Positions 10,853 through 62,438 are shown, numbered from the stretch's first letter. The stretch: 64,000 bases of DNA from Candidatus Marinacidobacterium sp. (GCA_965204755.1 OZ242011.1:2912001-2976000), one strand, 5' to 3'. Translations and numbers: made by a program. The notes: generated from the letters alone by a model not told the origin.

Positions 10853-11624
10853 ATGAGCGACCGTCCGCGGATCGAGCGCGTCCACATCGAAGGCTTCCGG
10901 TCACTGGCGAATATGACCCTGGAACCGGGCCCCGGCGTAACCGTGCTCAGGGGCCCCAACCGCGCCGGCAAGTACAACTTCTTCCGATTCTTCGAACTCG
11001 TCCAAGCGATGCTGGGCGAGCGCGGCCTCCGTCGCTTTGTCGCCTTGAATGGCGGCGCCGATGACCAATTCTTCGGCGGCGGGAAGCGAACTCGGCAATG
11101 GACGGCGGCCATTTGGATGACTAGTGGCGCCGTGCCGGCCGAGTGCGAGTTCACCTTGGCCCATGAAGAGCCGTACTTCTTCCGGTTCGCCGAGGAGAGA
11201 TTTCGATTGGCCGCGACGGATGCTGGAAGCACCGTGCGCTGGACCGATTGACAAGAGATACGGCGCGCATCTGACCTCAGACGGTTCGCTTTGTTTCTTC
11301 GCGCTGGTGACGCTGATGAAACAGCGGAGCGAGGCGCTACCGGGAGTCTTGTTCTTGGACGAGCCGGAGTTGGGTCTCAACCTCCGCGCGATTGCGATCC
11401 TCAGCGGGTTGCTCCGCTCGCTCGCGACGGATCGACAGATTATCGTCGCCACCCAGTGCTCCCTCTTCGTGGACGAGTTCGATTTGGACCAGATCCAAGT
11501 CTTGGATCTCGAAGACGGGCAGACTCGCGTCCGTGCCCTTGCCTCGGAAGACTATAGCGAGTGGCTCGATGACCACTCGGCGGGCGAGTTGTGGGAGAAG
11601 AACCTCTTGGGCGAGTGGTCGTGA
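10853..11624 (+). pseudogene. Degraded AAA_21-type (ABC-like) ATPase; frameshifted, apparently with an internal deletion
   Basis: N-terminal part (10853-11251) has IEGFRSL and an eroded Walker A GPNRAGKYN; C-terminal part in another frame has TSDGSLCFFAL, LDEPELGL, ELWEKNLLG. Confidence 0.75.
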
Positions 11625-11776
11625 CCCAGATTGCCCCTTCGTGGAAAGACGGCCGAAACGAAAGCTCTCGAAGACGGTACTAGTCTCCCCGCGCGCCCCG
11701 CCCCGATCTTTGACCATTGCCCTGCCGCCGTCGCTCCGCGTAGGGAAACCGCCGTTCTGGCGGAGCATTTGCCCCT

Positions 11777-13873
11777 TCACCGTTGCCAGTGCTGGCCGAT
11801 GTATTCGACGGCGTCCTTGGCTGCCAGTTTCTTGGTAGCATTGCCGATACGGAGATAGAAGACTGTATCACCCCGATACTCGACCCACACCGGCTGCTGA
11901 CTCGGAACAACGGCGACATAACACACCTCGGTGCCTTCGATGTCATGAAAGCTCACCGTTACTCCCGACGCGATGGTGACGCCAAATCCCGTGTCCAGAA
12001 GTTGACGCAACCGCACCTCAAAACCATCGCGGTCACTGCGCGGAAGAGTGGCGTAGTCTTGACTGAGACCCACGGCGCGGCCGTCGTCGCTTACGCCGAT
12101 CAGCAACGTCCCGCCGGAGGCGTTGAGAAGCCCGGCGACGGTCCTGACGACGGCATGCTCAATTTCCTTGTTGACCCTCCTTTCACGAAGATCCCACCGA
12201 AGACTCGACTTGAACTCGACGGTGCTGCTCTCACCTTGTTCGATGAGGTGCGGAATAGTAGGTGCGTTGTCGACTGGGGTCGGCGGAAGCCAACTGTCGA
12301 GAAAGACATTCATTGCAGAGGCGAGTCGTCCGCGACGATCACGGAGAAACCGTTCATAGTTCTCCGGTTTCCAGAGGTCCGGGGCGACCGGCACCGATTG
12401 GGCTTCTAGTGCGCCGGGTTGCCTCGTTTGGACATCGCCAAGATAGTCAGCGGGAGAGGCACTCTTCCACTGCCGCGGCACCTTCTGGGCCAGGAACGCT
12501 CGATTAGCGCATTCATTGATCAGCGTACTGTCGCTGACCCCGGCCTGCACAAGGACGGATCGTGGAAAAATGTAGTGACGCTCGCGACCGGAGGCGCTCT
12601 GCATCACACGGTCGTACAGAGGGTTGCCGGTGAACCAATCGCGGGCGTCATTGAATCTCGCGACCACTTGGCTCAGAAGGGTCACGGCGCTTCCAATTCG
12701 CGCTCCTTCCAGATCGGTGGCCGAAAGGGTGACACGACCGCGCTGCCTCCGGATGGCGTCCTCAAGTTCGAAAGTAGGATCGGCAGAGTCACGCGTGACG
12801 CATGCGACATCCTGCTGCAGAGCTGTCTCGGAGGCACCGGAATATCGTGACCAGAGACAGGCCAAGGAAATCCACCGAAGGAACCGACGCTTGAGTTCAT
12901 CCGTCGGAAAATCACCACCGTGTCGAGCGAGAAATACGGTCGCGACTAGAAGGGGCCGCGTACTCGGGATGTCCTTCGTGTCGGCGACACACAGCTCGGC
13001 CCGAAGCACCGAAACAAGGCGCTCCAGAGAGGGCACGAGACGATTCCAAGCGGATTTCAAATCGTCGGCAGGGGTCTTGAAGAAGGTGCCTTCGAGAAGA
13101 ATTGAGCCGGCGGTCACACCCGCCAAACAACGCACTAGGAAATCGAAATCGAAGTCGAAATCGCGTCGGCGTAGGTCGTCGCGGAAACGCCGCATCTCGG
13201 CGCGTGCCTCGGGCCAGATGCTACAGACATGCGCCAGAGCGAGGTCTGATTTCGTGAGAGTTGTACCGGCCTTGTTGAGACGGTTGAAGACTTCGACTAC
13301 TTCGTTGACGCCGTAATCGTCTCCTGACACTTTGTCGACGGTGTAGGAGTAGGTGCGGATCTGATCGAGGCGACTGAAGCGGGCGAGATTGTTCTGAATG
13401 AGGGTGCGCCGGTCTTCATCGAACTCGTCAAGCCGTCCCAACCACGAATTGAGGGTTTCCTTCAGGAGGTCGGGAACCCTGATCCAAGCGTGATTGTTCG
13501 CCATCTGAGACTTCTGCCAGAACCGAAACTCCTCAGTCTGCACGTTGAAGAAGAGATCGAAATACAGGGATTCGCCCTCATAGAAACGTGGCGGCTGGCC
13601 GCGGAAGAGTACGTAGAGAGTGGTGAGCCGCTGCTGTCCATCCAAGAGCAGGAGAGAGTGGCCGTCGGGGCGTGGCGTGCCGCCGCGAACGGGTGAGGGC
13701 TTGTAGGTACTCCAGACGAGAAGGTGACCGGAGGGCAGGCCGCGATACAGCGATTGAATGAGAGCCCGGACTTGATTGCGATTCCAGACGTAACCGCGCT
13801 GGAACTCTGGAAGGAGAAGTTCGTTGCGATCAACCTCTTCCAAGAGTTCTTGGATAGTCTTCACTTCATGCAA
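11777..13873 (-). CDS. DUF262 (GmrSD-like) protein fused to a C-terminal AlbA_2/Schlafen-like domain
   Basis: LPEFQRGYVW, LLDGQQRLTTL, FNRLNKAG (DUF262); GESSTVEFKSS and LNASGGTLLIGVSDDG (AlbA_2); lower GC than flanks; TTG/GTG start uncertain. Confidence 0.85.
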   Translation of the reverse strand: MHEVKTIQELLEEVDRNELLLPEFQRGYVWNRNQVRALIQSLYRGLPSGHLLVWSTYKPSPVRGGTPRPDGHSLLLLDGQQRLTTLYVLFRGQPPRFYEGESLYFDLFFNVQTEEFRFWQKSQMANNHAWIRVPDLLKETLNSWLGRLDEFDEDRRTLIQNNLARFSRLDQIRTYSYTVDKVSGDDYGVNEVVEVFNRLNKAGTTLTKSDLALAHVCSIWPEARAEMRRFRDDLRRRDFDFDFDFLVRCLAGVTAGSILLEGTFFKTPADDLKSAWNRLVPSLERLVSVLRAELCVADTKDIPSTRPLLVATVFLARHGGDFPTDELKRRFLRWISLACLWSRYSGASETALQQDVACVTRDSADPTFELEDAIRRQRGRVTLSATDLEGARIGSAVTLLSQVVARFNDARDWFTGNPLYDRVMQSASGRERHYIFPRSVLVQAGVSDSTLINECANRAFLAQKVPRQWKSASPADYLGDVQTRQPGALEAQSVPVAPDLWKPENYERFLRDRRGRLASAMNVFLDSWLPPTPVDNAPTIPHLIEQGESSTVEFKSSLRWDLRERRVNKEIEHAVVRTVAGLLNASGGTLLIGVSDDGRAVGLSQDYATLPRSDRDGFEVRLRQLLDTGFGVTIASGVTVSFHDIEGTEVCYVAVVPSQQPVWVEYRGDTVFYLRIGNATKKLAAKDAVEYIGQHWQR

Positions 13874-30791: not shown

Positions 30792-30977
30792 TTTTCCCGG
30801 AGGACGGTGACGAGTCGACGGGGATCGGCGCCCCGGCAGGCCCGCGAGAGGCCCCTTTCGGCTTGCATCCGGCGGCTTCCCCGATTTTCCCGGAGGACGG
30901 TGACGAGTCGACGGGGACCGGCGCCCCGACAGGCCCGCGAGAGGCCCCTTTCGGCTTGCATCCGGCGGCTTCCCCGA
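30792..30977. repeat. Tandem duplication, 2 x 93 bp, in the divergent recQ/operon promoter region
   Basis: 30792-30884 and 30885-30977 differ at about 2 positions. Confidence 0.92.
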
Positions 30978-37961: not shown

Positions 37962-39256
37962 GCGCCTCCGTTCCTTGGCTTCTTGATGATGACGCCCTTG
38001 GGGCGTGTGGCAACCGAGGGTCGCAAGGCGTTCATGGATGGCCCGTCCCATTGAGATCGCCGATCGTCGCTGACGAGCGCGGCGGAGAGCCGGCGTCCGA
38101 AAGACGGATTCGCTAGAAAGGACGAGCCAGACACCGTTCGCCGGACCGGCGCAAACCCGTCGAATGCAGATCGCTCATTCGGGCTGGCTCGGCGCCACTG
38201 CTTGGTGAATGGTTGGGGGGAGGCAGAAGGATCGTCGCGACGAGTGACCCAACGCGAGAGCAGGCAGGTGGAGACGTCGTCGATGAGTTTTTCGCTCCGA
38301 AGGAGCAGTCCCTCCAATGTTGCTTTTGCGTCCTCTTGGACAACATAGGTGTCGGCAGAATCGGCGTCGATGAACGCCTCGACATCGGATAGTGATGGAG
38401 ACCGGGGTAGCCGTCGTTGAGATCGAAAGCGAGCAGGGAGATGGCTAGGATTGAGTATAGTTGTGTCCGGTTCGCTATCGTGAAACTGCATTCGAAGGCC
38501 CCGATGAGTCAACATGTTTCGATAGTCCAACATCCAGTGGAGCCAGCCGCCAGCACTGTGACGGAGCACTGTGGCGCGAATCCCGGACAAGGGGTCATGG
38601 CCATCGCGATCCAGGGATTTCGGGAATGTTCGAGAGAAGGAGGCAGTCTTGATCCATTCGGGCAGTGGGTGCACGCCAATGATGAGGGCTGCCAAGCAAT
38701 CCAAGGCGCTGCAGAGGGCGCGGAGCAGCCCGTCGCGATGGATATCCGCAAGAGTGCCTCGCTGCAGGGAATCGAGTGGGCTCCGAACGGGCCCGGTAAG
38801 ACTGTCTCGCGTGGGGAAGAAGCACTCGTTCTCGGAGTGGTCCAAGTATTCGAGCCAGTGGACGCGGGCAGCAACAAGGTGCGTGGAAATACTGCTGGCG
38901 CAGACAAGGAGGTGGTCACCGATGAGGATGCGATGTGGTGTTACTTCCTTACACTGCGGAAGCCACCAGCCGATACCGTACGGCGGTGCGGTGCTAAGGT
39001 CCTCGAATACGGCCTTACGCAGGTGATGGACATGGGGTGTCTCGATGCCCAGTTTTTCCTCAAGTTCGTGCTCTTGGTGTCGCGGATCGCTACTCTGAAA
39101 CGGTTTGGCGAGGAGCGCGAGATGGGCGTCAAGCACGGTGTCGATGGGCGGTATGGTAGTCCCGAGCGAGGGCCGCATGGCCGACGCGGGAGAGAAACCA
39201 TAGCATGGGTTGCCTCGGCTGGTGGTTCGCCGATCTGGCTGCACGGGTGGCGTCAT
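37958..39256 (-). CDS. Hypothetical protein with a HEPN-like RxxxxH motif (Cthe_2314-like)
   Basis: LCSALDCLAALI followed by WMLDYRNMLTHRG; low GC; start uncertain. Confidence 0.6.
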   Translation of the reverse strand: MTPPVQPDRRTTSRGNPCYGFSPASAMRPSLGTTIPPIDTVLDAHLALLAKPFQSSDPRHQEHELEEKLGIETPHVHHLRKAVFEDLSTAPPYGIGWWLPQCKEVTPHRILIGDHLLVCASSISTHLVAARVHWLEYLDHSENECFFPTRDSLTGPVRSPLDSLQRGTLADIHRDGLLRALCSALDCLAALIIGVHPLPEWIKTASFSRTFPKSLDRDGHDPLSGIRATVLRHSAGGWLHWMLDYRNMLTHRGLRMQFHDSEPDTTILNPSHLPARFRSQRRLPRSPSLSDVEAFIDADSADTYVVQEDAKATLEGLLLRSEKLIDDVSTCLLSRWVTRRDDPSASPQPFTKQWRRASPNERSAFDGFAPVRRTVSGSSFLANPSFGRRLSAALVSDDRRSQWDGPSMNALRPSVATRPKGVIIKKPRNGGA

Positions 39257-41023: not shown

Positions 41024-42040
41024 TCACTTCGATTGACGCGGGAAGTCTCGTGAAATCGTGCGGTCCCAGATACTGTCGAATGCTTCGGCGATGCCGTTCG
41101 GGCGAATGCCGCCGTATTCTCCGCTCGTGTGGCATATCGCGCCGCAACCGTCCTCATCGTGGAACAGCGTATGGAACGCTATCCGGTCGTTCCGTTGACG
41201 CCTCAGGTCCAACTCCTTGAGGATCACATAGTCGTGCGTCGCCAGAAACACCTGCACGCCGAGTCGGTGGAGTTTCAGGATCGCTTCAATGACGCCGCCG
41301 AGTAGAGAAGGATTCAGCGATGCCTCCGGGTGATCCCAGAACAACACGGAATCCTTTTTGAGAGTGCCGTTCCGCACCAGGAGCCAGAGCAAGCCCAGCC
41401 GTCGAAGACCGTCGGCTACGAGTGGAAACTCCAGATTGCCACGGTTGCAGTCCAAGTAGAACTCGCCATTCTCCACCCGGACTCTGCCGCCAAGGCGCAG
41501 GCCCTGAAGAACATCCTCGCGAGCGGCGTCCATCGGTACGCCGTGCGTGGTTCGGAGCGCCTGCTCGATCAGGTCCGAATGGAACTCCGGGGAGCGGGTT
41601 TCCGAGGATGATGGCCGGTTTCGAATTCCTGAGGTGCGCGACAACACTTCCTCGACCGGGATAAAGACGGCTTCCAGGGAATCATGGCGCCAAGCAGGAT
41701 CGACGCTCAGTTGCGCCGTGTTCGTCTCGCGCGAGTTCGTGGCGAATTCCAGACGCAGGCGGCGCGTCCCTCGATGCACCTCCACGGAACTGGTTTGGCC
41801 GCCGAGCCGGCGGGTGACGAGTCTCCCGATGAGCCGGTGTCGCGGTTGGAAGACGCCCACCAGTTGGTCTGCGAAGTCCTTGCCGGCGCGAGTGGCGGCG
41901 CCGGCAGCGTAGGCGACCCTCATCAAGTGCGTTTTGCCGGCGCCGTTCTTGCCGAGGAAGACATTGACGCCGGGGGAGAACTCGAGGTCGAGGTCCGTGA
42001 AGGCCGTGAAGTTCCTGAGCCGAACGCGAGTGAGGCTCAC
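41024..42040 (-). CDS. AAA_15/AAA_21-type (ABC-like) ATPase
   Basis: LRNFTAF, Walker A GKNGAGKT, ADGLRRLG, WDHPEASLNP (atypical Walker B), ATHDY. Confidence 0.85.
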   Translation of the reverse strand: MSLTRVRLRNFTAFTDLDLEFSPGVNVFLGKNGAGKTHLMRVAYAAGAATRAGKDFADQLVGVFQPRHRLIGRLVTRRLGGQTSSVEVHRGTRRLRLEFATNSRETNTAQLSVDPAWRHDSLEAVFIPVEEVLSRTSGIRNRPSSSETRSPEFHSDLIEQALRTTHGVPMDAAREDVLQGLRLGGRVRVENGEFYLDCNRGNLEFPLVADGLRRLGLLWLLVRNGTLKKDSVLFWDHPEASLNPSLLGGVIEAILKLHRLGVQVFLATHDYVILKELDLRRQRNDRIAFHTLFHDEDGCGAICHTSGEYGGIRPNGIAEAFDSIWDRTISRDFPRQSK

Positions 42041-50284: not shown

Positions 50285-51463
50285 TCAGGCGCGCGCCGAA
50301 GGCGCCGAGGCCGGATTCCCGGAAGCGGCCTCCCCGGAATCGGCGGGCGCCGCCGCGTACTTGCCCAGCCGCAGGCTGCGCCAGGCCCGGGGCAGGAGGG
50401 GGGCGCTGAGCGCGACATTCGCCAGCAGGAAGGTCAGGTGGGCGGCCAGCGCATACGCGAGCAGGCCGGCCTCCCCGCCGGGGGACGCCGACGCAGCCGC
50501 GGAGTGGAAGTAGATCCAGGCGGCCTGGGTGGTGCCGAGGCGGGCGATCCCGATGGGAAGCGCGGCCGCCAGGAAGATGAGGGGCAGGGTGGCGACCAGG
50601 GCGCCGAAGGAGACTTCCACGCCGAAGGCCCGGAGGGCGAAGTGGTGGCCCGCCGCGGCCGCCAGCAGCGCCGGCGCCTTCCACGCGAGCACCGTCAGGT
50701 AGCGCCGGGCGCCCGCCCGCCGGAAGGCGGCCAGGATCCGCCAGCGGGGCGGGCCGACCCGCGCCGCGCCGACGCGGAGCCGCCCCCGGAGGAAGACCGC
50801 GACGAGGCCGAGCCCCGCGGCGGCGATGGCGACGGCCGCCGGCGCCCGTTCCGGAGCGGCGCTGCCGAGCGCCGCGGCGCCCAGGCCGGCCCACAGCAGC
50901 AGGTGGAGCCGCTGGCACAGGTCGAGGAACAGGAGCGTTCCCGCGCATTCCAGATAGCCGGAGTCCGGCCGGCCGCCCGCGGTGAACCGGCGGCCCATCG
51001 CCCCGAGCAGCGCCGCCTGCGACGCGCGCCCGTTCCACAGGCTCACCAGGTAGTCCACCGCCCGCAGCGACAGCACTTCGCGCGCCGGGAGGCGCGGCGG
51101 ATGGAACCAGCCGAGCGTCTGCCGCAGCAGGCCGGTGTCGAGGGCGACATAGACCACGGAAACCGGGAGCACCGCCAGCAGGAACCGGCCGGTGTCCGCC
51201 TCGGCGAACGCCGCCGCCAGGCGCTCCACCGGCACCCGGCGCAGCAGGAGCGCCAGGATGACGGCGGCCCCGACGAACGGCAGCGCCGCGAGGAGGAACC
51301 GCGCCGCTCGCCGGCGCGGGGTCGGGCCGCCGGCCGGCGCCCGGTCGCCGTTCGCGCCGCCGTTCATTCCCCCGTTCGCGCCGCCGTTCATGCCCCCGTT
51401 CGCGCCGCCGTTCACGCCCCCGTTCACGCCGCCGTTCATGCCCCCGTTCATGCCCCGGTTCAT
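50285..51463 (-). CDS. Lysylphosphatidylglycerol-synthase TM (flippase-like) membrane protein
   Basis: Multiple TM helices, LPIGIARLGTTQAAW; exact start ambiguous because of the N-terminal repeat. Confidence 0.7.
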   Translation of the reverse strand: MNRGMNGGMNGGVNGGVNGGANGGMNGGANGGMNGGANGDRAPAGGPTPRRRAARFLLAALPFVGAAVILALLLRRVPVERLAAAFAEADTGRFLLAVLPVSVVYVALDTGLLRQTLGWFHPPRLPAREVLSLRAVDYLVSLWNGRASQAALLGAMGRRFTAGGRPDSGYLECAGTLLFLDLCQRLHLLLWAGLGAAALGSAAPERAPAAVAIAAAGLGLVAVFLRGRLRVGAARVGPPRWRILAAFRRAGARRYLTVLAWKAPALLAAAAGHHFALRAFGVEVSFGALVATLPLIFLAAALPIGIARLGTTQAAWIYFHSAAASASPGGEAGLLAYALAAHLTFLLANVALSAPLLPRAWRSLRLGKYAAAPADSGEAASGNPASAPSARA

Positions 51464-51473
51464 GCCGCCGTTC
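51350..51473. repeat. Tandem repeat, about 10 x 12 bp (GTTCAYGCCSCC-like; encodes [M/V/A]NGG)
   Basis: Read directly. Confidence 0.9.
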
Positions 51474-54208: not shown

Positions 54209-55969
54209 GTGGCGTTCACCGGACTCGACTGGGCGGTGCTCGCCGCGTACATCGCCGCCGCGGCGGCGATCGGCCTCGGTGCCGCCCGCTCCGCCGGCCG
54301 CGGGACTTCCTCCTTCTTCCTCGGCGGACGGCGGCTCCCCTGGTGGCTGCTCGGCACCTCGATGGTGGCGACCACCTTCTCCACCGACACGCCGAACCTG
54401 GTCGCCGAACTGGTCCGCCAGAACGGCGTCGCCGCGAACTGGACCTGGTGGGCCTTCTGCCTCACCGGGATGCTCACGGTGTTCGTGTTCGCCCCGCTCT
54501 GGCGGCGGAGCGGGCTGGTCACCGACCTCGGCTTCTACGAACTGAGATACGCCGGGCGCCCGGCGGCCTTCCTGCGCGCCTTCCGCGCCGCGTACCTGGG
54601 CATCTTCTTCAACTGCGTGGTCATCGCCACGGTCACCCTCGCCGGCGCGAAGATCGGCGGGGCGCTCTTCGGGCTGGAAAAGGCCACCGCGGTGATCGCC
54701 GCCGGCGTGCTCGCCGCCGGGTACGCGGTGGTCTCCGGGTTCCGGGGAGTGGTGGTCACCGACCTCCTCCAGTTCGCCGTCTCGGTGACCGGCGCGGTCG
54801 TCGCCGCGGTCTGGGCGCTCGGCCATCCCCGGGTAGGAGGGCTCGACGGACTGACCGGGGCGCTCGGCGACCGCCTGGCCTTCGTGCCGCCCACCGGCTC
54901 GGAGGCCTTCGCCGCCCTGTTCCTCGTCCCGGTGGCGCTCCAGTGGTGGAGCGTCTGGTACCCCGGCGCGGAGCCCGGCGGCGGCGGCTACATCGCCCAG
55001 CGGATGCTGGCGGCGCGGAGCGAAGAGGACGCCCGCCGGAGCGCGCTCTGGTTCACCGTCGCGCACTACGCGCTCCGGCCCTGGCCCTGGATCCTGGTGG
55101 CGCTGGCCTCGATCCTCGTCTATCCCGACCTCGCTTCGCTCCGGGCGGCGCTCCCCGGACTCGACCCGGCGCTGGTCGGGGACGACCTCGCCTATCCGGT
55201 CATGCTCCGGCTCCTGCCGCCCGGCCTGCTCGGACTGGCGGCGGCCTCGCTGGTCGGCGCCTACATGTCCACGGTGGACACCCACCTCAACTGGGGCGCG
55301 TCCTACCTGGTCGAGGATCTCTACCGCCGGTTCCTCCGTCCCGGAGCATCCGCGAAGGAGTCGGTGCGGGTGGCCCGCGCCGCCACCGTGCTGCTCATGG
55401 CCGGGGCGGCGCTGCTCACCCTGACCATCGACACCGCCCGCGGCGGGTTCGGCCTGCTGCTGCAGATCGGCGCCGGGACCGGGCCGCTGTTCGTCGCCCG
55501 CTGGCTCTGGTGGCGGATCAACGCCTGGTCGGAGATCCTGGCGATGACCGGCTCGCTGCTGGTGGCGGTTTCGCTGCCGGCGCTCGGGGTCGAGCCGGGT
55601 TCCGCCTCCGGCCTGGCGCTCGGGATCGCCGCGACCACGGCGATCTGGCTTACCGCCACGCTGCTGACCCCGCCGGAGGACCCCGCCGCGCTCGACCGCT
55701 TCGTCGAGAAGATCCGCCCGCCCGCCCCCGGCTGGCGCGCCGCCTACCGGCGCACCGGCGCGCGGCCCGCCCCGTCCGCGCGCGCCTTCGCCGCCTGGCC
55801 GCTGGCCTGCGTGATGGTGTACGCCGCGCTCTTCGGGACGGGGGCGCTGTTGCTCGGCCGCAGCCCGATCGTCGTCGCGGCGTTCGCCGCGCTCCTCGTC
55901 GCGAGCGCCCTCGCGGTCGCCCGCCTCCTCCGCCCCCGCCCCGGAATCGCCGCCTCCCCCGGGAGTTGA
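54209..55969 (+). CDS. Sodium:solute symporter family protein
   Basis: FFLGGRRLPWW, SMVATTFSTDTP, GGGYIAQRM, AYMSTVDTHLNWG. Confidence 0.92.
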   Translation: MAFTGLDWAVLAAYIAAAAAIGLGAARSAGRGTSSFFLGGRRLPWWLLGTSMVATTFSTDTPNLVAELVRQNGVAANWTWWAFCLTGMLTVFVFAPLWRRSGLVTDLGFYELRYAGRPAAFLRAFRAAYLGIFFNCVVIATVTLAGAKIGGALFGLEKATAVIAAGVLAAGYAVVSGFRGVVVTDLLQFAVSVTGAVVAAVWALGHPRVGGLDGLTGALGDRLAFVPPTGSEAFAALFLVPVALQWWSVWYPGAEPGGGGYIAQRMLAARSEEDARRSALWFTVAHYALRPWPWILVALASILVYPDLASLRAALPGLDPALVGDDLAYPVMLRLLPPGLLGLAAASLVGAYMSTVDTHLNWGASYLVEDLYRRFLRPGASAKESVRVARAATVLLMAGAALLTLTIDTARGGFGLLLQIGAGTGPLFVARWLWWRINAWSEILAMTGSLLVAVSLPALGVEPGSASGLALGIAATTAIWLTATLLTPPEDPAALDRFVEKIRPPAPGWRAAYRRTGARPAPSARAFAAWPLACVMVYAALFGTGALLLGRSPIVVAAFAALLVASALAVARLLRPRPGIAASPGS

Positions 55970-56056
55970 CGCCGCCTTCCCGGAACCGACGCCGCCTCCG
56001 CGGGAATCGGCGTCACCCCGGTCAGGCCGGCGCGCCGCGGCCGCTCGCGCCCGTCG

Positions 56057-57640
56057 TCAGGGGTCCTCGGCGCCCGGGCCTTCGAGCGGGATGGCCGGGA
56101 CTGCGGCGGCGGCCGGTTCGCCGTCCTCCGGCGCATCCCCGCAGGGAGCGAGTTCCTCCCGCAGCCGCGCGCTCCGCTGCCGGCGGCGCCGGACGATGCC
56201 CGCCACCGTCTCCATCCGCTGGCGGGGGCCCGCGCTCCGTCGGACGCCTTCGACGGCTCGACCGGCATCGGACGGAGTGAGCCCCGGCAGGACCGCCGAC
56301 GCCTCCAGCGGACGGGCCGGCGCCCCTCGCCCCAGGGCCAGGAAGTCCGCCCGGAGCATCTTCTCCCCGCGCTTGCCGCTGATGCGCCAGAACTCCCGAA
56401 CGCCCAAGTCGGCGTACCGGGCGATCTTGCCCTCGTCGGCGTGGGTGATCTCGACTTCGACCACGAGGTCCGGGCCGTTTTGTTCGAGGAATGCTTGCGC
56501 GGCTTCCTCGCTCTCGGCCTCGGCGCGGAGGTAGGCCTCGGCCCGTTCCCCCACATGGAAGCAACAGTCCGGTTCCGGACCGGTTCCCGGAGGTTCCCCC
56601 TCCCCGCGCAGGCGCACATTCCCGAATTTGGCCGTGGCCCGGCCCAGCGCCTCCGCCGCGCAGTCCACGATGTCGTCGAGGACCACGCCCAGGCGCTCGT
56701 GGAGGCGCGAAGGGCTCATGAGGACGACGACTTCCCGCGCCGGGTCGAGCCATACCCGGCGGAACCGGCTCGTCCAGTCCAGCCCGGCGAGGGCCGCCAC
56801 CGTCGCCGCGTCCGCGCGCAGGCGGTAGATCGTCGAGCCGAGCGGCCCGACGAAACTCGTGCGCTCCGGCGGCGGGACCGCGCCGCCCGCCGGCGGCGGC
56901 GCCCCGTAGGGGGCGCGTTCTTCCCGCACCCGGAAACTCTCGCGTCGGCGCCGCCGGACGATGCGCGCCACCCACTCGATGCCCTCCCGGGGGTCCAGGC
57001 TCAGTTGGACACCCTCGACGGCTTCGCAGACATCCGGCGGAGTGAGCCCCGGCAGGACCGCCGACGCCTCCAGCGGACGCGGCGCCGCGCCCCGGCCGAG
57101 AGCCAGGAAGTCCGCCGAGAGCGTCTCCCCTCCGCGCTTGCCGCGCAGTCTCCAGAACTCCCGGACCCCCAGGTCGGCGTAACGAACGATCTTGCCCTCG
57201 TCCGCGTGGGTGATCTCGACTTCGACGACGAGGTCCGGGCCGTTCTCCGCGAGGAAGGCGTCCGCCGCTTCCTGGCTCCCGGCCAGCGCCTCGACATAGG
57301 CGCGGGCGCGCTCCCCGACATAGAAGGAGCAGTCCGGCTCCATGCCCGTTCCGGGCGGCGCGTCCTTCCCGCGCAGGCGAACGCTCCGGAGTTTGGCGGA
57401 GGCGCGGCCCAGGACGCCGGCCGCCGCCCGCACGATGTCGTCGAAGACCCCGGTCAGGCCTTCGTGGCGGGGTGACGGGGACATGAGGACGACGACCCCC
57501 CCGACCGGGTCCAGCCACACCCGGCGGAAGCGGCTCGTCCAGTCCAGACCGGCGAGCGCGGCCACCGTCGCCGCGTCCGCGCGCAGGCGGTAGATCGTCG
57601 AGCCGAGCGGCCCGACGAAACTCGTGCTCGTCCCGGTCAT
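56057..57640 (-). CDS. Uma2-family (PD-(D/E)XK) endonuclease, tandem two-domain fusion
   Basis: Two copies of MSPSxxHE...EPDCxF...PDLVVEVEIT...KxxxYADLGVREFW. Confidence 0.85.
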   Translation of the reverse strand: MTGTSTSFVGPLGSTIYRLRADAATVAALAGLDWTSRFRRVWLDPVGGVVVLMSPSPRHEGLTGVFDDIVRAAAGVLGRASAKLRSVRLRGKDAPPGTGMEPDCSFYVGERARAYVEALAGSQEAADAFLAENGPDLVVEVEITHADEGKIVRYADLGVREFWRLRGKRGGETLSADFLALGRGAAPRPLEASAVLPGLTPPDVCEAVEGVQLSLDPREGIEWVARIVRRRRRESFRVREERAPYGAPPPAGGAVPPPERTSFVGPLGSTIYRLRADAATVAALAGLDWTSRFRRVWLDPAREVVVLMSPSRLHERLGVVLDDIVDCAAEALGRATAKFGNVRLRGEGEPPGTGPEPDCCFHVGERAEAYLRAEAESEEAAQAFLEQNGPDLVVEVEITHADEGKIARYADLGVREFWRISGKRGEKMLRADFLALGRGAPARPLEASAVLPGLTPSDAGRAVEGVRRSAGPRQRMETVAGIVRRRRQRSARLREELAPCGDAPEDGEPAAAAVPAIPLEGPGAEDP

Positions 57641-57725
57641 CCGGGCTCCTCGGCGCCCGGGCCTTCGGGCGGGACAGCCTCGCCGGCGGCGGCGTCCGGG
57701 CGGGCGCCCGACGGAGCGGGACGGG

Positions 57726-58349
57726 TCACGGCGCGGCCTCCGGGGCGGGCCGGCCGGCGAGCCGCGCGAGAACCCGGCGCGCGACGCCCGATCGCCTCTC
57801 TCCCTGCGCCGCCCAGTCGCCGGCGGCCCACAACTCCTCCAAGTCTTCCCGGTGGACGCCGGGAACGACTTCGGACGCGGGAACCGACTCCGCCTCCGCT
57901 CCCGGCCGGCGGCGGTGGATCGCCGCCCCGCCCGTCGGCGTCCACGCCCAGACCTCGCGCACTCCCGAGTCGAAGTAGTCGCCGCGCTTTTCCGCCGCGC
58001 GCGCCGGCGGGGAACTCCGGTCGATCTCCACGACCAGCGGCGGCGGTCGGTGCCCGCGTTCCGGACAGCACGCCTCGTCGAAGCCGAAACCGAGTTCGAC
58101 TCCGGGGTCGAAGAAGTAGAACGACTCGTCCGGTTCCAGCACCGAGCCGCGCCACTCGATCCGGAGCGCGCCGGCCCCGTACGCCCGGTCGCCGCACACC
58201 GCGCGAACCAGGTCGTACGCCAGCCTCGCGCGGGAGTCGCGGCCGAGCATCGGCTCCGCCACCACCTCCGCCAGTCCGCGGCGAGCGTCGTAGTCCCCCC
58301 GCGGCCAGGCGAAACGGCTCGCCCCGCGGTCGAACTCCGCCCGCGTCAT
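57726..58349 (-). CDS. Divergent Uma2-family endonuclease
   Basis: LEPDESFY, PPLVVEIDRSS, KRGDYFDSGVREVW; GGAGG upstream of ATG 58349. Confidence 0.75.
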   Translation of the reverse strand: MTRAEFDRGASRFAWPRGDYDARRGLAEVVAEPMLGRDSRARLAYDLVRAVCGDRAYGAGALRIEWRGSVLEPDESFYFFDPGVELGFGFDEACCPERGHRPPPLVVEIDRSSPPARAAEKRGDYFDSGVREVWAWTPTGGAAIHRRRPGAEAESVPASEVVPGVHREDLEELWAAGDWAAQGERRSGVARRVLARLAGRPAPEAAP

Positions 58350-58379
58350 CCGCCGACCCTCCACGCCCCGCGCCGACCT

Positions 58380-58535
58380 CGCACTCGCCGGCTCGCCCGC
58401 ACTCGCCGGTTCGCCCGCACTCACCGCCTCAGCCGCTCCTTTCCGCGCTCACGCGAAACGCACCCGTCAGTCTCGGTCTCGGGCTCGATTCCGGGCTCGA
58501 TATCGGGCTCGGTCTCGGGCTCGATCTCCGTCCCG
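58380..58535. repeat. Short tandem repeats (18-bp GCACTCGCCGGYTCGCCC x2.5; 12-bp CGGGCTCGRTNT x4-5)
   Basis: Read directly. Confidence 0.7.
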
Positions 58536-58771
58536 ATCCGGGCGCCGACCGCAGTGTAACCACTTGGTTCGACGGGCGCTTCCGCGCCTCCGGCGCCCCC
58601 GCGGGCTCGCCCCGGCGGCGGCGGAACGGCGTCGGATGACGCCGACTGTCGAGAGACACCAACCCTTGCGCAGTTGGGAGACACCGACTTTTGCGCACCC
58701 GGAAGCGGCGGAGGGGAGGCCGATCCCGAACTACGACCCGTCCACGAAAGCGGGGCGACCTCACCCCGCAG

Positions 58772-59137
58772 CTATACACAATTCCGTCCACCTATACACA
58801 ATTCCGGTCAGCTATACACAATTCGGGGGATCCAGCTATACACAATTCGGCTGAACCCCTTGCGGCCGTAGGCGATACGAGAAACCATCGGGCGGCCCGG
58901 GACGCCCCTCCGGGAGGCGTACGCGGCCCTCGGATGCCCCATGTGCGGCTTCCCGGGCTCCCCGGCGGTCGTCCGGCGAGTCCCGAAGCGGCGTGTTCCG
59001 CCGCCGGCCCGCGCCGCGGCGTCCACCTATACACAATTCGCGTCACCTATACACAATTCCGGGCCGAGCTATACACAATTCGGCCGAGCTATACACAATT
59101 CGACCTATACACAATTCCGCTCACCTATACACAATTC
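58772..59137 (+). repeat. Split array of 10 direct repeats of CTATACACAATTC (4 + 6), iteron/DnaA-box-like
   Basis: Exact 13-mers start at 58772, 58792, 58812, 58836, 59027, 59047, 59069, 59089, 59105, 59125. Confidence 0.95.
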
Positions 59138-59317
59138 GCCCACCGCCCGGCGGGGGCGCGGGACGAGCGGGGGCTCTCCCCGCGGAGCCGTCGGAAGCGG
59201 AGGGCGCCCCGGAGGCCGAGGCGGAGGATCGGGCGAAGGATCGGGGCGGCTTCGCCGCCCGGCGGCGCGTCCGACTTCCCGCCGCCCGGCGGGGGCGCCG
59301 GCCGCTCGCGCCCCTCG

Positions 59318-60133
59318 TTACGGCTCCTCGGTGCTCAGGCCATCGAGCGGGATGGCTCCGACGGCGGCGGCGGCCGGCGCCCCGACCGCCGCCTCCCCGT
59401 AGGGCGCCCGCTCCTCGCGCACGCGCACGCTCTGCTGCCGGCGGCGCCGGACGATGCTCGCCACCGTCTCGATCCGGTCACGGTTGTGCGGGCTCCGCCG
59501 GACGCCCTCGACGGCTCGACAGACATCCGACGGAGTGAGCCCCGACAGGACCTCCGACGCGTCCAGCGGACGCGGCGGCGCCCCTCGCCGGAGGGCCAGG
59601 AAGTCCGCCCGGAGCGTCTTCTCCCCGCGTTTGCCGCGGAGGCGCCAGAACTCCCGCACGCCCAGGTCGGCGTACCGGGCGGTCTTCCCTTCGTCGGCGT
59701 GGGTGACCTCCACCTCGACCACCAGGTCCGGGCCGTTCTGCTCGAGGAACGCCTGCGCGGCTTCCTCGCTCTCGGCCGCGGCGTCCAGATACGCCCGGGC
59801 TCGATCCCCGACATAGAAGGAACAATCCGGTTCCATGCCGGTGCCGGGAGGCTCCCCTCTCCCGCGGAGGCGCACGCTCCCGGACTTGGTCGAGGCGCGG
59901 CCCAGCGCGTCCGCCGCCGCACCCACGATCTCGTCGATGACCCGGGTCAGGAGTTCATGGAGCGGCGACGGAGACATGAGGACCACCACTTCCCGCACCG
60001 GGTCCAGCCACACCCGGCGGAAGCGGCTCGTCAGGTCCAGGCCGGCGAGCGCGGCCACCGTCGCCGCGTCCGCGCGCAGGCGGTAGATCGTCGAGCCGAG
60101 CGGCCCGACGAAACTCGTGCTCGTCTCCGTCAC
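59318..60133 (-). CDS. Uma2-family endonuclease, close paralog of both halves of 56057-57640
   Basis: GTG start with GGAGG; MSPSPLHE, MEPDCSFY, PDLVVEVEVT, YADLGVREFW. Confidence 0.85.
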   Translation of the reverse strand: MTETSTSFVGPLGSTIYRLRADAATVAALAGLDLTSRFRRVWLDPVREVVVLMSPSPLHELLTRVIDEIVGAAADALGRASTKSGSVRLRGRGEPPGTGMEPDCSFYVGDRARAYLDAAAESEEAAQAFLEQNGPDLVVEVEVTHADEGKTARYADLGVREFWRLRGKRGEKTLRADFLALRRGAPPRPLDASEVLSGLTPSDVCRAVEGVRRSPHNRDRIETVASIVRRRRQQSVRVREERAPYGEAAVGAPAAAAVGAIPLDGLSTEEP

Positions 60134-60240
60134 CGATGTTCCTCCGAAGTCCGAAGGGTAACGGCGACGATCGGGCGGCCGCGGGTTTCCGCGGCGGGAC
60201 GGGCCGCCGCGGGTCCGGCCGGCCGCCGGCCGGGAGCGGG

Positions 60241-61353
60241 TCAGCGTCGGCGGAGCGTGTTGCGGTCCACCAGGCGGACGGAGACGGAGCGCTCCCGGCC
60301 GTCTCGCCAGACGGTGAGTTCCACTTCGTCTCCCACCCGGTGGTGCGTCTCCAGCAGCAGCATCAGGTCGCGCCGGGACGCCACCCGGACGCCGTCCACC
60401 GAGAGCAGGTAGTCCCCGCCGTAGCGGATGCGCAGGTTCCCGATCCGCCCCATGCGCTCCGCGCCCCGGAGCCCGGCGCGGGCGGTGGGGCCTCCCCGCG
60501 CGACCGACCGGATCATCAGGCCGCCGCCCTCCGGCGCCGCCACCCCGGAGCGGCGGAACACGCCGGCCAGCCGGGGCGGGACCTCCTGGACCGACATCGC
60601 CAGGTGGGGATGCGGGTACCGCCCGTTCTCGATGAGTTCCGGCGCCACCCGCGCCACCGTGGCCGCCGGGATGGCGTAGCCGATGCCGGCCGAGCCGCCG
60701 GTCGGGCTCACGATGGCGCTGTTCACCCCGACCACCCGGCCGTCCAGGTCGAGCAGCGGCCCCCCGGAGTTGCCCCGGTTGATCGCCGCGTCGGTCTGGA
60801 TGATCTCCCCGATGAAGGCTCGGTCGGGGCTCTCGATGACGCGGCCGAGCCCGCTCACCACCCCGGTGGTCAGGGTCTGCTCCAGCCCGAACGGATGCCC
60901 GATGGCGATCACGAACCGGCCCACTTCCAACTCGTCGGAGTCGCCGAGGGCGAGCGGCTCGCGCCCCTCCGCGCCCGAAGGCGCCCGGATCACCGCCAGG
61001 TCGTTCGTCGGGTCGCTCCCGACCAACCGCGCGGCGCGGACTTCGCCGTCGGCGAAAGTGACTTGCAGTTCGACGGCGCCTTCGACGACATGGAAGTTCG
61101 TCACGATGTGCCCGCGCCGGTCGTAGAGGAACCCGGACCCGGTCCCCTCCTCGGTCGTCGGCCCCCGGAACCAGTCGAACCCCTGCGTCCGGGAAGTGAT
61201 GTTCACCACCGCCGGGGTGGCCGCCCGATAGACCGACGACACCCGCCGCTCCAGTTCGATCTGGGCGGAAGCGCCGGCCGCGGCGCCCGCCGCCAGGACG
61301 GCGGCGAGCCCGAGCGCCGGAACGGCGAACGCAGGCCGGCGGCCGAGGGTCAT
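60241..61353 (-). CDS. HtrA/S1C trypsin-like serine protease with PDZ domain
   Basis: GSGF, VTNFHVV, DLAV, IQTDAAINRGNSGGPL. Confidence 0.93.
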   Translation of the reverse strand: MTLGRRPAFAVPALGLAAVLAAGAAAGASAQIELERRVSSVYRAATPAVVNITSRTQGFDWFRGPTTEEGTGSGFLYDRRGHIVTNFHVVEGAVELQVTFADGEVRAARLVGSDPTNDLAVIRAPSGAEGREPLALGDSDELEVGRFVIAIGHPFGLEQTLTTGVVSGLGRVIESPDRAFIGEIIQTDAAINRGNSGGPLLDLDGRVVGVNSAIVSPTGGSAGIGYAIPAATVARVAPELIENGRYPHPHLAMSVQEVPPRLAGVFRRSGVAAPEGGGLMIRSVARGGPTARAGLRGAERMGRIGNLRIRYGGDYLLSVDGVRVASRRDLMLLLETHHRVGDEVELTVWRDGRERSVSVRLVDRNTLRRR

Positions 61354-61439
61354 GGGCGGCTGGCGGCGGCTCTCGGGGATGGCGATCCCGGTATTTTGCT
61401 TCCGGCTCGGCCGCTTCCCTTTGGTATCGTTCCGGGACT

Positions 61440-62438
61440 ATGAAATCCGTTTTCAAGATCATCGCCGTCGGGGCGGTCGCTGCTCTCGCGGCATGCGGCG
61501 GCGGCGCGCCGGAGACGCTGACCATCTACTGCGGGCGGGGCGAGTCGCTGGTCGGCCCGGTGGTCGAGCGCTTCATGGCGGAGACCGGCATCCCGGTCGA
61601 GGTCCGGTACGGCGGCACCGCCGACCTGGCGGCGCAGATCCTCGAAGAAGGCGAAGTCAGCCCCGCCGATGTCTATTACGGACAGGACGCCGGCGCGCTC
61701 GGCCAACTGGCGGCCGAGGGCCGGCTGCGCGCGCTCTCCGCGGAGATCCTGGCCCGGGTTCCCGAAGGGTTCCGCGACCCCGGCGGCCGCTGGGTGGGAA
61801 CCACCGGCCGGGCGCGGGTCTTCGTTTACAACACGGAACTCCTGGGGCCGGAGGACCTGCCGGACTCCGTCTGGGGCTTCACCGAGCCCGAATGGAAGGA
61901 CCGGATCGGCTGGGCGCCCACGAACGGCTCCTTCCAGGCGTTCGTCACCGCCCTCCGCGTCCTCGAGGGCGAGGAGCGGGCCGAAGAGTGGCTGCGGGGG
62001 ATCCTGGCGAACGAGCCCGAGGCGTACTCCGGCAACACCGCGATCTACCAGGCGGTCGCCGACGGTGAAGTGGAAGTCGGCCTCTCCAACCACTACTACC
62101 TCTTCCGTTTCCTCGAGCAGCAGGGCGACGAGTTTCCGGCCCGAAGCGTGAGTCCGGCCGGCGGCGGCGCGGGCAGCCTGATCAACATCTCCGGCGGCGG
62201 CGTGCTCGACACCGCGCAGAACCCGGAGGGGGCGGAGAGATTCCTCGCCTACCTCCTCTCGGACGCGGTGCAGGCGGACTTCGCCGCCCGGACCTACGAG
62301 TATCCGCTCGTCGCCGGGATCGCCACCGACCCGGCGGTCATCCCGCTCGAAGAGATCCGGCCGCCGGACCTGGAACTCGGCGACCTCGAGGATCTCCGCG
62401 GCACCCTCGACCTCCTCCGGACCGTCGGGGCGCTCTAG
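61440..62438 (+). CDS. Fe3+ ABC transporter substrate-binding lipoprotein (FbpA/AfuA-like)
   Basis: Lipobox LAAC, SPADVY, RARVFVYN, WAPTNGSFQAF, NHYY, EYPL. Confidence 0.9.
   Translation: MKSVFKIIAVGAVAALAACGGGAPETLTIYCGRGESLVGPVVERFMAETGIPVEVRYGGTADLAAQILEEGEVSPADVYYGQDAGALGQLAAEGRLRALSAEILARVPEGFRDPGGRWVGTTGRARVFVYNTELLGPEDLPDSVWGFTEPEWKDRIGWAPTNGSFQAFVTALRVLEGEERAEEWLRGILANEPEAYSGNTAIYQAVADGEVEVGLSNHYYLFRFLEQQGDEFPARSVSPAGGGAGSLINISGGGVLDTAQNPEGAERFLAYLLSDAVQADFAARTYEYPLVAGIATDPAVIPLEEIRPPDLELGDLEDLRGTLDLLRTVGAL

Follow-up and report, generated by a model that had tools for sequence, protein, structure and literature searches.

The window, the whole 64-kb stretch of DNA that we analyzed, has a GC content of 57-81% (mostly 70-78%) and encodes proteins with PSD1, PSCyt2, DUF1501, DUF1552, and DUF1585-1595 domains, which we take to be typical of Planctomycetota. 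The host chromosome is of a high-GC, planctomycete type. Between two members of a tandem Uma2 (PF05685) gene family on the minus strand is an 890-bp intergenic region (58425-59317), which contains an array of ten short direct repeats, here called boxes. Pfam annotation places Uma2 genes on both sides of the array, as originally predicted; along the minus strand the order is UmaC, the array, a divergent paralog (Uma2#2), and then the fused UmaA and UmaB.

UmaC (59318..60133, minus strand) is assigned by Pfam to the PD-(D/E)XK-like Uma2 family. Its stop codon is 180 bp from box 10, and we infer a GTG start with GGAGG upstream. Uma2#2 (57726..58424, minus strand) shares 31% identity with UmaC over 125 amino acids, and the array occupies the interval 348-715 bp upstream of the gene's start. 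A C-terminal tail of the family type runs on from Uma2#2 in another frame to 57637, with an ATGA overlap with the UmaA start, and a frameshift near the 3′ end of the gene is probable. UmaA and UmaB are two Uma2 units fused in frame within one 527-amino acid ORF (56057..57640, minus strand); in a three-way DNA alignment of UmaA, UmaB, and UmaC, mean column identity is 79%. Uma2#2, UmaA, and UmaB probably form an operon downstream of the array. The array lies within a fast-evolving cluster of tandem paralogs, at a locus prone to duplication.

UmaC and the UmaA-UmaB ORF have weak, partial matches to the PADLOC defense candidate PDC-S17 (E values of 1e-9 to 3e-16), as does Uma2#2 (3.9e-4). UmaC has no tblastn match in plasmids and no sequence relative in the PDB, and no title or abstract opening among the papers searched describes a defined function for the Uma2 family. 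Other neighbors encode an HtrA-type protease, an ABC transporter, and a sodium:solute symporter.

Pfam scans covered 54 of the 56 ORFs with 50 or more amino acids in the 54-64 kb interval and 56 larger ORFs elsewhere (110 ORFs across the window), and none of these was a dnaA, rep, par, integrase, or transposase gene. The original prediction that no dnaA, rep, par, or transposase gene is nearby therefore holds for the 54 of 56 ORFs scanned at 54-64 kb. A tRNA search found none. Between 58400 and 59330 there is no convincing ORF, and the ORFs there have no Pfam match. We considered the array as coding sequence and rejected this, as the repeat spacings disrupt any frame and one minus-strand frame has a TAG in every box. 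We likewise rejected a mobile-element origin of the locus for lack of relevant plasmid or phage similarity: megablast of 56000-61500 against plasmids matched only a 126-bp stretch of the protease gene, and the array itself gave one irrelevant 42-bp match among 72,556 plasmids and no match among 50,697 phages.

The intergenic region of the array also contains tandem repeats of 18 bp (2.8 copies, 58380-58430), 12 bp (~5 copies, 58470-58532), and 25 bp (two copies, 58648-58697), the last with units ending in TTGCGCA. A repeat with a 20-bp period downstream of UmaB (55931-56009) has no similarity to the boxes. Elsewhere in the window, we observed a direct segmental duplication (~22.8-28.6 kb and ~31.2-36.8 kb, offset 8455 bp, 79-93% identity in sampled 300-nt blocks) that contains DUF1592/DUF1588-type, DUF1552, and ankyrin-repeat genes. 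Between its copies lie a RecQ helicase gene and a 93-bp tandem repeat of two copies (30792-30977). A further 12-bp (24-bp) tandem repeat of ~10.7 copies (51346-51473) falls within or at the 5′ end of an ORF (50285-51463) with a weak LPG_synthase_TM match. Cumulative GC skew rises from 0 to 51 kb and then falls, and its maximum at ~48-51 kb is terminus-like in polarity, although 64 kb of sequence does not suffice for a firm assignment; for a dif-like pattern, the window has only a chance-level match.

Organization of the box array

A search of the window recovered ten exact copies of the 13-mer CTATACACAATTC, all on the plus strand and in groups of four and six. The cores start at 58772, 58792, 58812, and 58836 in group 1 and at 59027, 59047, 59069, 59089, 59105, and 59125 in group 2. 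Allowing up to two mismatches returned 11 matches, compared to a mean of 0.03 in 100 dinucleotide-preserving shuffles, none of which reached 11. Besides the ten exact copies, this search picked up one site with two mismatches, at 38448 on the minus strand, inside a low-GC island. Core start-to-start spacings are 20, 20, and 24 bp in group 1 and 20, 22, 20, 16, and 20 bp in group 2. The copy number, orientation, grouping, and spacings all agree with the original prediction. Its description of the boxes as helically phased, on the other hand, overstates spacings that range from 16 to 24 bp: with six of the eight counted as 20 bp, the phasing is only loose.

Core search and unit alignment define boxes 1 (58770..58784), 3 (58810..58824), and 8 (59087..59101) as AGCTATACACAATTC and boxes 2 (58790..58804), 5 (59025..59039), 6 (59045..59059), and 10 (59123..59137) as ACCTATACACAATTC, all on the plus strand. 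The remaining three, on the same strand, have individual features. Box 4 (AGCTATACACAATTC, 58834..58848) has flanks able to pair in a ~10-bp stem around the core. Box 7 (AGCTATACACAATTC, 59067..59081) has an upstream linker, GGCCG, in common with box 8, which suggests a recent duplication of a unit. Box 9 (ACCTATACACAATTC, 59103..59117) lies just 16 bp past box 8. The 5′ edge is AGCT in five boxes and ACCT in the other five, as had been noted before, with position −1 being G in five and C in five.

The gap between the groups measures 178 bp (58849-59026), in line with the ~180 bp of GC-rich DNA originally described. This GC-rich spacer (about 58849..59024) has no convincing ORF, promoter, or Rfam match; on its minus strand is a terminator-like hairpin with a U-rich tail (58907-58890). 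Abutting box 1 is a GC hairpin, GCGGGG-N8-CCCCGC (58750..58769), followed on the minus strand by TTTCG, and this combination looks like a terminator with a short U tract. A second hairpin, GCGGGG-N5-CCCCGC (59167..59183), is found 30 bp past box 10. The pattern GCGGGGN{3,10}CCCCGC has only two matches in 64 kb, one on either side of the array. This total is at chance level (1.7 expected), and what is notable is that both lie within ~430 bp of each other.

Box cores are invariant and linkers have diverged

Alignment of the ten 24-nt units revealed 14 invariant columns, which comprise the 13-mer and an A at position −2; the other ten columns are all below 90%. Put differently, 14 of the 15 positions of the A-S-core unit do not vary across the ten boxes. 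We gauged linker divergence from repeat identity figures (67-88% over 24 nt) and from the unit alignment. By our own arithmetic from these 67-88% identities, agreement with the reference unit is roughly 50% over the 11 non-core positions, and the upstream linkers retain a faint common form, CGTCCAS. This pattern fits an ancestral 20-bp unit whose linkers would have diverged by substitution as 140 core positions stayed unchanged.

Invariant cores with variable flanks argue for selection on the cores, or for a sequence-specific process, rather than for a drifting minisatellite. Moreover, 14 positions held invariant in ten copies, with no flank column at 90%, imply a sequence-specific reader. Judged from its sequence, the array is real, selected, and protein-site-like, and the earlier proposal that invariant cores amid drifting linkers point to selected protein-binding sites is thus supported by the 14 invariant columns and the flank columns below 90%. 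Cores that mutate as fast as the linkers, one part of the outcome named as countering that proposal, are not what the alignment shows: 14 columns are invariant, and the other ten are below 90%.

We nevertheless weighed the idea that the array is a young or neutral minisatellite without function. Tandem repeats abound in the window (121 TRF rows), the array's own intergenic region has 12-, 18-, and 25-bp repeats, and boxes 7 and 8 have a linker in common. The array is also absent from all 185,579 species-representative genomes that we scanned (see below), and the presence of AGCT in it may mark recently arrived DNA. Slippage, however, copies whole units, yet the linkers differ by substitutions and the 140 core positions do not change; all other tandem repeats in the window are GC-rich and imperfect. 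We therefore regard a functionless minisatellite as quite unlikely.

The positions of the hairpins raise another alternative, in which the array acts as RNA: one or two minus-strand transcripts with repeated GAAUUGUGUAUAG units would serve as a sponge or as a source of processed units. On the minus strand, each box group is indeed followed by a GC hairpin and a short U-containing tail (58907-58890 and 58769-58750). Against this, the sequence folds no better than its shuffled versions (z = 0.08 for the minus strand and −1.41 for the plus strand), the cores are not consistently displayed in stem-loops, and 57600-59500 contains no sigma-70-type promoter. Rfam 15 returned no match at gathering score or at E ≤ 1, save one chance-level 21-nt match outside the array. 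A role as RNA is, in our estimation, highly improbable.

AGCT is purged from native DNA and retained at box edges

The original prediction held that AGCT, the 5′ edge of half of the boxes, is apparently otherwise absent from host DNA. This is very nearly correct. There are five more AGCT sites in the window, all of them in low-GC islands, and the depletion is real: we found 10 AGCT sites where 133 ± 12 were expected. Five are in low-GC islands (11663, 11950, 12821, and 12993 in an island section spanning 11663-12996, and 37529), and five are in the array (58770-59090). Four palindromic control tetramers are not depleted (found/expected: TGCA, 89/94; GATC, 376/355; CATG, 123/107; GTAC, 123/77). 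Native DNA has thus been strongly purged of AGCT, which among regions of native composition persists only in the array, which suggests strong AGCT-specific restriction pressure in this lineage.

Position −1 of the boxes appears free to vary (five G, five C), which indicates that AGCT is not being removed there. Its retention at box edges fits sites shielded by a bound protein and would equally fit a young array. Gating of the array by AGCT methylation, as was originally suggested, is speculation.

The low-GC islands (10.7-14 kb and 37-42 kb, 57-65% GC) carry defense-type genes. These include a GmrSD/HEC-05-like gene (11777-13873), an AAA_21 fragment (11124-11624), and a HEC-02A ATPase (41024-42040, E = 3.8e-96).

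Boxes resemble DnaA boxes and recur in DnaA-box clusters

The core 9-mer of the boxes, CTATACACA, is the DnaA-box consensus TTATNCACA (as given in PMC4447404) with the first T changed to C, plus fixed flanks, and the earlier observation of a single mismatch between the two is accurate. Sites with at most one mismatch to TTATNCACA number 10 in 64 kb, all of them array cores, compared to 2.8 expected, and 0 of 100 shuffles reached 10. The density of DnaA-box-type sites is thus 10 in 370 bp, and these are the only such sites in the window.

The original prediction called for a search of other genomes for the motif. We scanned 185,579 species-representative genomes for two copies of TATACACAATT within 3-25 nt of each other and obtained 24 loci with one match each. 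The source genome of the window lies outside this set, and the scan did not return the window's own array. None of the 24 loci has an array of comparable size, and no planctomycete among the 185,579 representatives has even two copies of TATACACAATT together, which indicates that the array is not conserved in exact form. The search thus yielded paired motifs in 24 loci, but no second array and no planctomycete match.

We counted box patterns in all 24 loci and read the sequence of 11. In six (L013, L015, L016, L017, L020, and L021), the pair belongs to a DnaA-box cluster, with further DnaA-box 9-mers beside it. In L017, from a Chloroflexales MAG, two exact copies of the 13-mer, 22 bp apart, lie within a 1.7-kb non-coding region that holds five perfect copies of TTATCCACA plus variants and that appears origin-like. 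L015, on a Poribacteria chromosome, has 10 copies of TTWTNCACA in ~245 bp, adjoining TAGTAGTAGTAGTAG (a TAG-repeat run) and an AT-rich stretch; we take this to be the origin layout of the DnaA-trio literature. In the two Bacillaceae loci, the pair is upstream of a Sua5/YwlC-type gene (L021, Cytobacillus) or between TsaD(Gcp)-type and ABC-F genes (L016, Fictibacillus). In Bacillus subtilis, DnaA binds clusters in the gcp-ydiF and ywlC-ywlB intergenic regions (PMC3245932), and the kinds of genes flanking L016 and L021 are those found at these positions. In L013 and L020, the pair stands beside other box-like 9-mers.

Other loci have different settings. L024 is a triple 11-bp tandem, and L007, L008, and L009 are short tandem duplications. 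In L007 (2000-2042, Methylococcaceae MAG), CTTATACACAATTCCGTCATT occurs twice in tandem and matches box 1 plus its linker (CTATACACAATTCCGTC) at 16 of 17 positions. In L023 (1880-2050, Lentibacillus), TGTRTAC-rich repeats surround the exact 13-mer, an Alp7A-like actin gene follows directly, and the region looks like a partition centromere or operator.

With six of the 24 pair loci being DnaA-box clusters, the recurrent natural setting of the paired motif is a DnaA-box cluster. The pair flanks in the 24 loci were set by the search pattern, so they provide no evidence that ATT belongs to DnaA recognition. The part of the original prediction that connected the array to the initiator thus gains independent support from the same 11- to 13-mer being paired in DnaA-box clusters of unrelated bacteria, but its suggestion of an actual origin does not.

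The array as a candidate non-origin DnaA-box cluster

Our preferred reading, which we put forward tentatively as possible and somewhat short of probable, is that the ten DnaA-box-type sites make up a dense cluster outside the origin, of the datA or B. subtilis type, upstream of the Uma2 operon. Each box would bind one DnaA DNA-binding domain, with DnaA as the presumed binder, and ten boxes in 370 bp would allow stable, cooperative occupancy, as at the non-origin clusters of B. subtilis and at Escherichia coli datA. Occupancy could hold or inactivate part of the initiator pool, control the downstream Uma2#2-UmaA-UmaB operon, or both.

Several published observations bear on this scheme. How stably DnaA binds depends on the affinity of the boxes and on their local density, and some clusters are lineage-specific (PMC2533591); boxes with up to three mismatches can bind (PMC4447404). 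Non-origin DnaA-box clusters restrain initiation (PMC3245932), and DnaA at such clusters regulates neighboring genes, such as sda, ywlC, and yydA (PMC3245932; PMC2533591). Regulation of adjacent genes by cluster-bound DnaA would fit the array's position upstream of an operon.

Several features count against a DnaA-box cluster. All ten boxes start with C rather than the canonical T, and the high-affinity 9-mer boxes in Table 1 of PMC4285127 are all T-initial. Five further positions beyond the 9-mer are invariant (A at −2 and ATTC at +10 to +13) and are not explained by a 9-bp reader. The boxes are identical and unidirectional, whereas L015-L017 and L021 have mixed boxes and orientations. Finally, the array lies within a fast-evolving tandem paralog cluster and is not conserved in exact form in any of the species representatives scanned.

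Some of these features would be expected if the array instead consisted of iteron-, centromere-, or excisionase-type sites for a dedicated sequence-specific protein encoded elsewhere, with the likeness to DnaA boxes being coincidental. We consider this, the main rival to our preferred reading, rather unlikely, though a possibility to be taken seriously. In its favor, 14 of 15 positions are invariant, and the boxes run in one direction with a period of ~20 bp and variable linkers. Such an invariant, same-direction pattern is to be expected of long asymmetric sites that a single protein reads. The region that holds the 13-mer of L023, which precedes an Alp7A-like actin gene, is centromere-like and full of repeats, and the two-group layout of the array recalls R1 parC, with its two separate sets of 5-fold repeated iterons (PMC2241845). 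Against it, Pfam found no rep, par, alp, tub, ribbon-helix-helix, integrase, or transposase gene in 54 of the 56 ORFs at 54-64 kb, and none of the 72,556 plasmids or 50,697 phages gave a relevant match. In addition, we estimate, rather than compute, that an unrelated 15-mer would match TTATNCACA this well ~1% of the time.

Iteron origins have direct repeats of ~17-22 bp with conserved cores, which the array has, and an adjacent rep gene and plasmid or mobile context, which it does not. Type II/III centromeres (parC, tubC, and alp7C) are direct-repeat groups that directly precede an operon encoding a centromere-binding protein and a motor; the array has the repeats, but its neighbors are Uma2 genes and an HtrA-type protease gene. 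The geometry suits the partition site that was originally entertained, but the neighborhood contains no par, alp, or tub gene, and the locus shows no similarity to plasmids or phages.

The array is probably not a chromosomal origin, and we view its being one, or being half of a bipartite origin, as very unlikely. Ten initiator-type boxes in two groups would suit an origin, and some bacterial origins have all boxes in one orientation, for example that of Helicobacter pylori (PMC4285127); no title or abstract opening among the papers searched describes an experimentally mapped planctomycete origin. However, the array has no AT-rich unwinding element, in agreement with the original prediction, as the lowest 400-bp GC content around it is 65.5% in a segment that includes the boxes themselves. 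There is no TAG/CTA trinucleotide (DnaA-trio) run beside either group, unlike in L015. GC skew is negative on both sides, with its sole inflection being a maximum near 48-51 kb, although 64 kb is too short for a firm call. Pfam detected no dnaA, dnaN, gyrB, or parAB among the 110 ORFs scanned, and the site is within a duplicating Uma2 paralog cluster. The origin option of the original prediction is thus disfavored by the lack of an unwinding element, of a DnaA-trio run, and of origin-linked genes among the ORFs scanned, with no skew minimum seen over this short stretch.

The array might also be a recognition, target, or decoy site of the flanking Uma2-family nucleases. It is bracketed by four Uma2 units, and these have the weak, partial matches to PDC-S17 described above. 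On the other side, we know of no sequence-specific binding in the Uma2 family, and with more than 1,500 homologues but no second array in 185,579 genomes, a pairing of Uma2 with such arrays is not general. Such genomes contain very many Uma2 genes, which makes adjacency to the array weak evidence. A target or decoy role is speculation, with very little likelihood in our judgment.

Implications of the array

A compact array of ten identical sites offers an easy experimental handle. If DnaA binds it, Planctomycetota would gain its first locus of the initiator-titration type, one of unusual regularity; among the titles and abstract openings searched, none gives an experimental description of replication control, an origin, or a DnaA-box cluster in this phylum. 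If another protein binds it, the array would mark a chromosomal system of site-specific DNA binding that is new. Native DNA is almost devoid of AGCT except at the box edges, and this is a separate lead on restriction pressure in this lineage.

A bolder proposal, which we think unlikely, combines these elements. The array would be a self-contained, permanently occupied initiator-loading module of a planctomycete, with ten identical extended boxes between two matching hairpins, and would serve as a locus of replication control, be it a datA-like sink or an unconventional origin without a DNA unwinding element (DUE), and its AGCT boxes would be shielded or epigenetically marked and so escape a genome-wide purge. 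If true, this would link a restriction-type constraint to initiator control.

Comparison to known systems

Theta-plasmid iteron origins (RK2, F, and P1) contain separate groups of direct repeats of 17-22 bp, in which the cores are conserved and the spacers vary. The array shares these direct repeats with conserved cores, variable spacers, and separate groups but differs from such origins in having no rep gene, AT-rich region, or plasmid context. Plasmid R1 parC (ParMRC) resembles the array in having ten direct repeats in two groups with unbound DNA between them (PMC2241845). The array differs in being chromosomal, in its 4 + 6 grouping, ~20-bp period, and 178-bp gap, and in having no parR/parM-like gene nearby and no plasmid similarity.

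Bacterial oriC arrays, as represented by L015 and L017, are likewise DnaA-box clusters, and L017 contains the exact 13-mer twice. The array differs from these in that it lacks an AT-rich unwinding element, a trinucleotide run (present in L015), and mixed box types, and the window, too short for a firm reading of skew, shows no skew minimum.

The array differs from the DnaA-box clusters of B. subtilis and from E. coli datA in having boxes that are all identical, unidirectional, and C-initial, with five extra invariant flanking positions, and in belonging to a different phylum. Its likeness to them lies in dense TTATNCACA-type 9-mers that are intergenic and away from dnaA, as in the six B. subtilis clusters (gcp-ydiF, ywlC-ywlB, yydA-yycS, and others) and datA. 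The likeness to the B. subtilis clusters extends to the TATACACAATT pair, which is also found in Bacillaceae loci whose neighbors are a Sua5/YwlC-type gene or TsaD(Gcp)-type and ABC-F genes.
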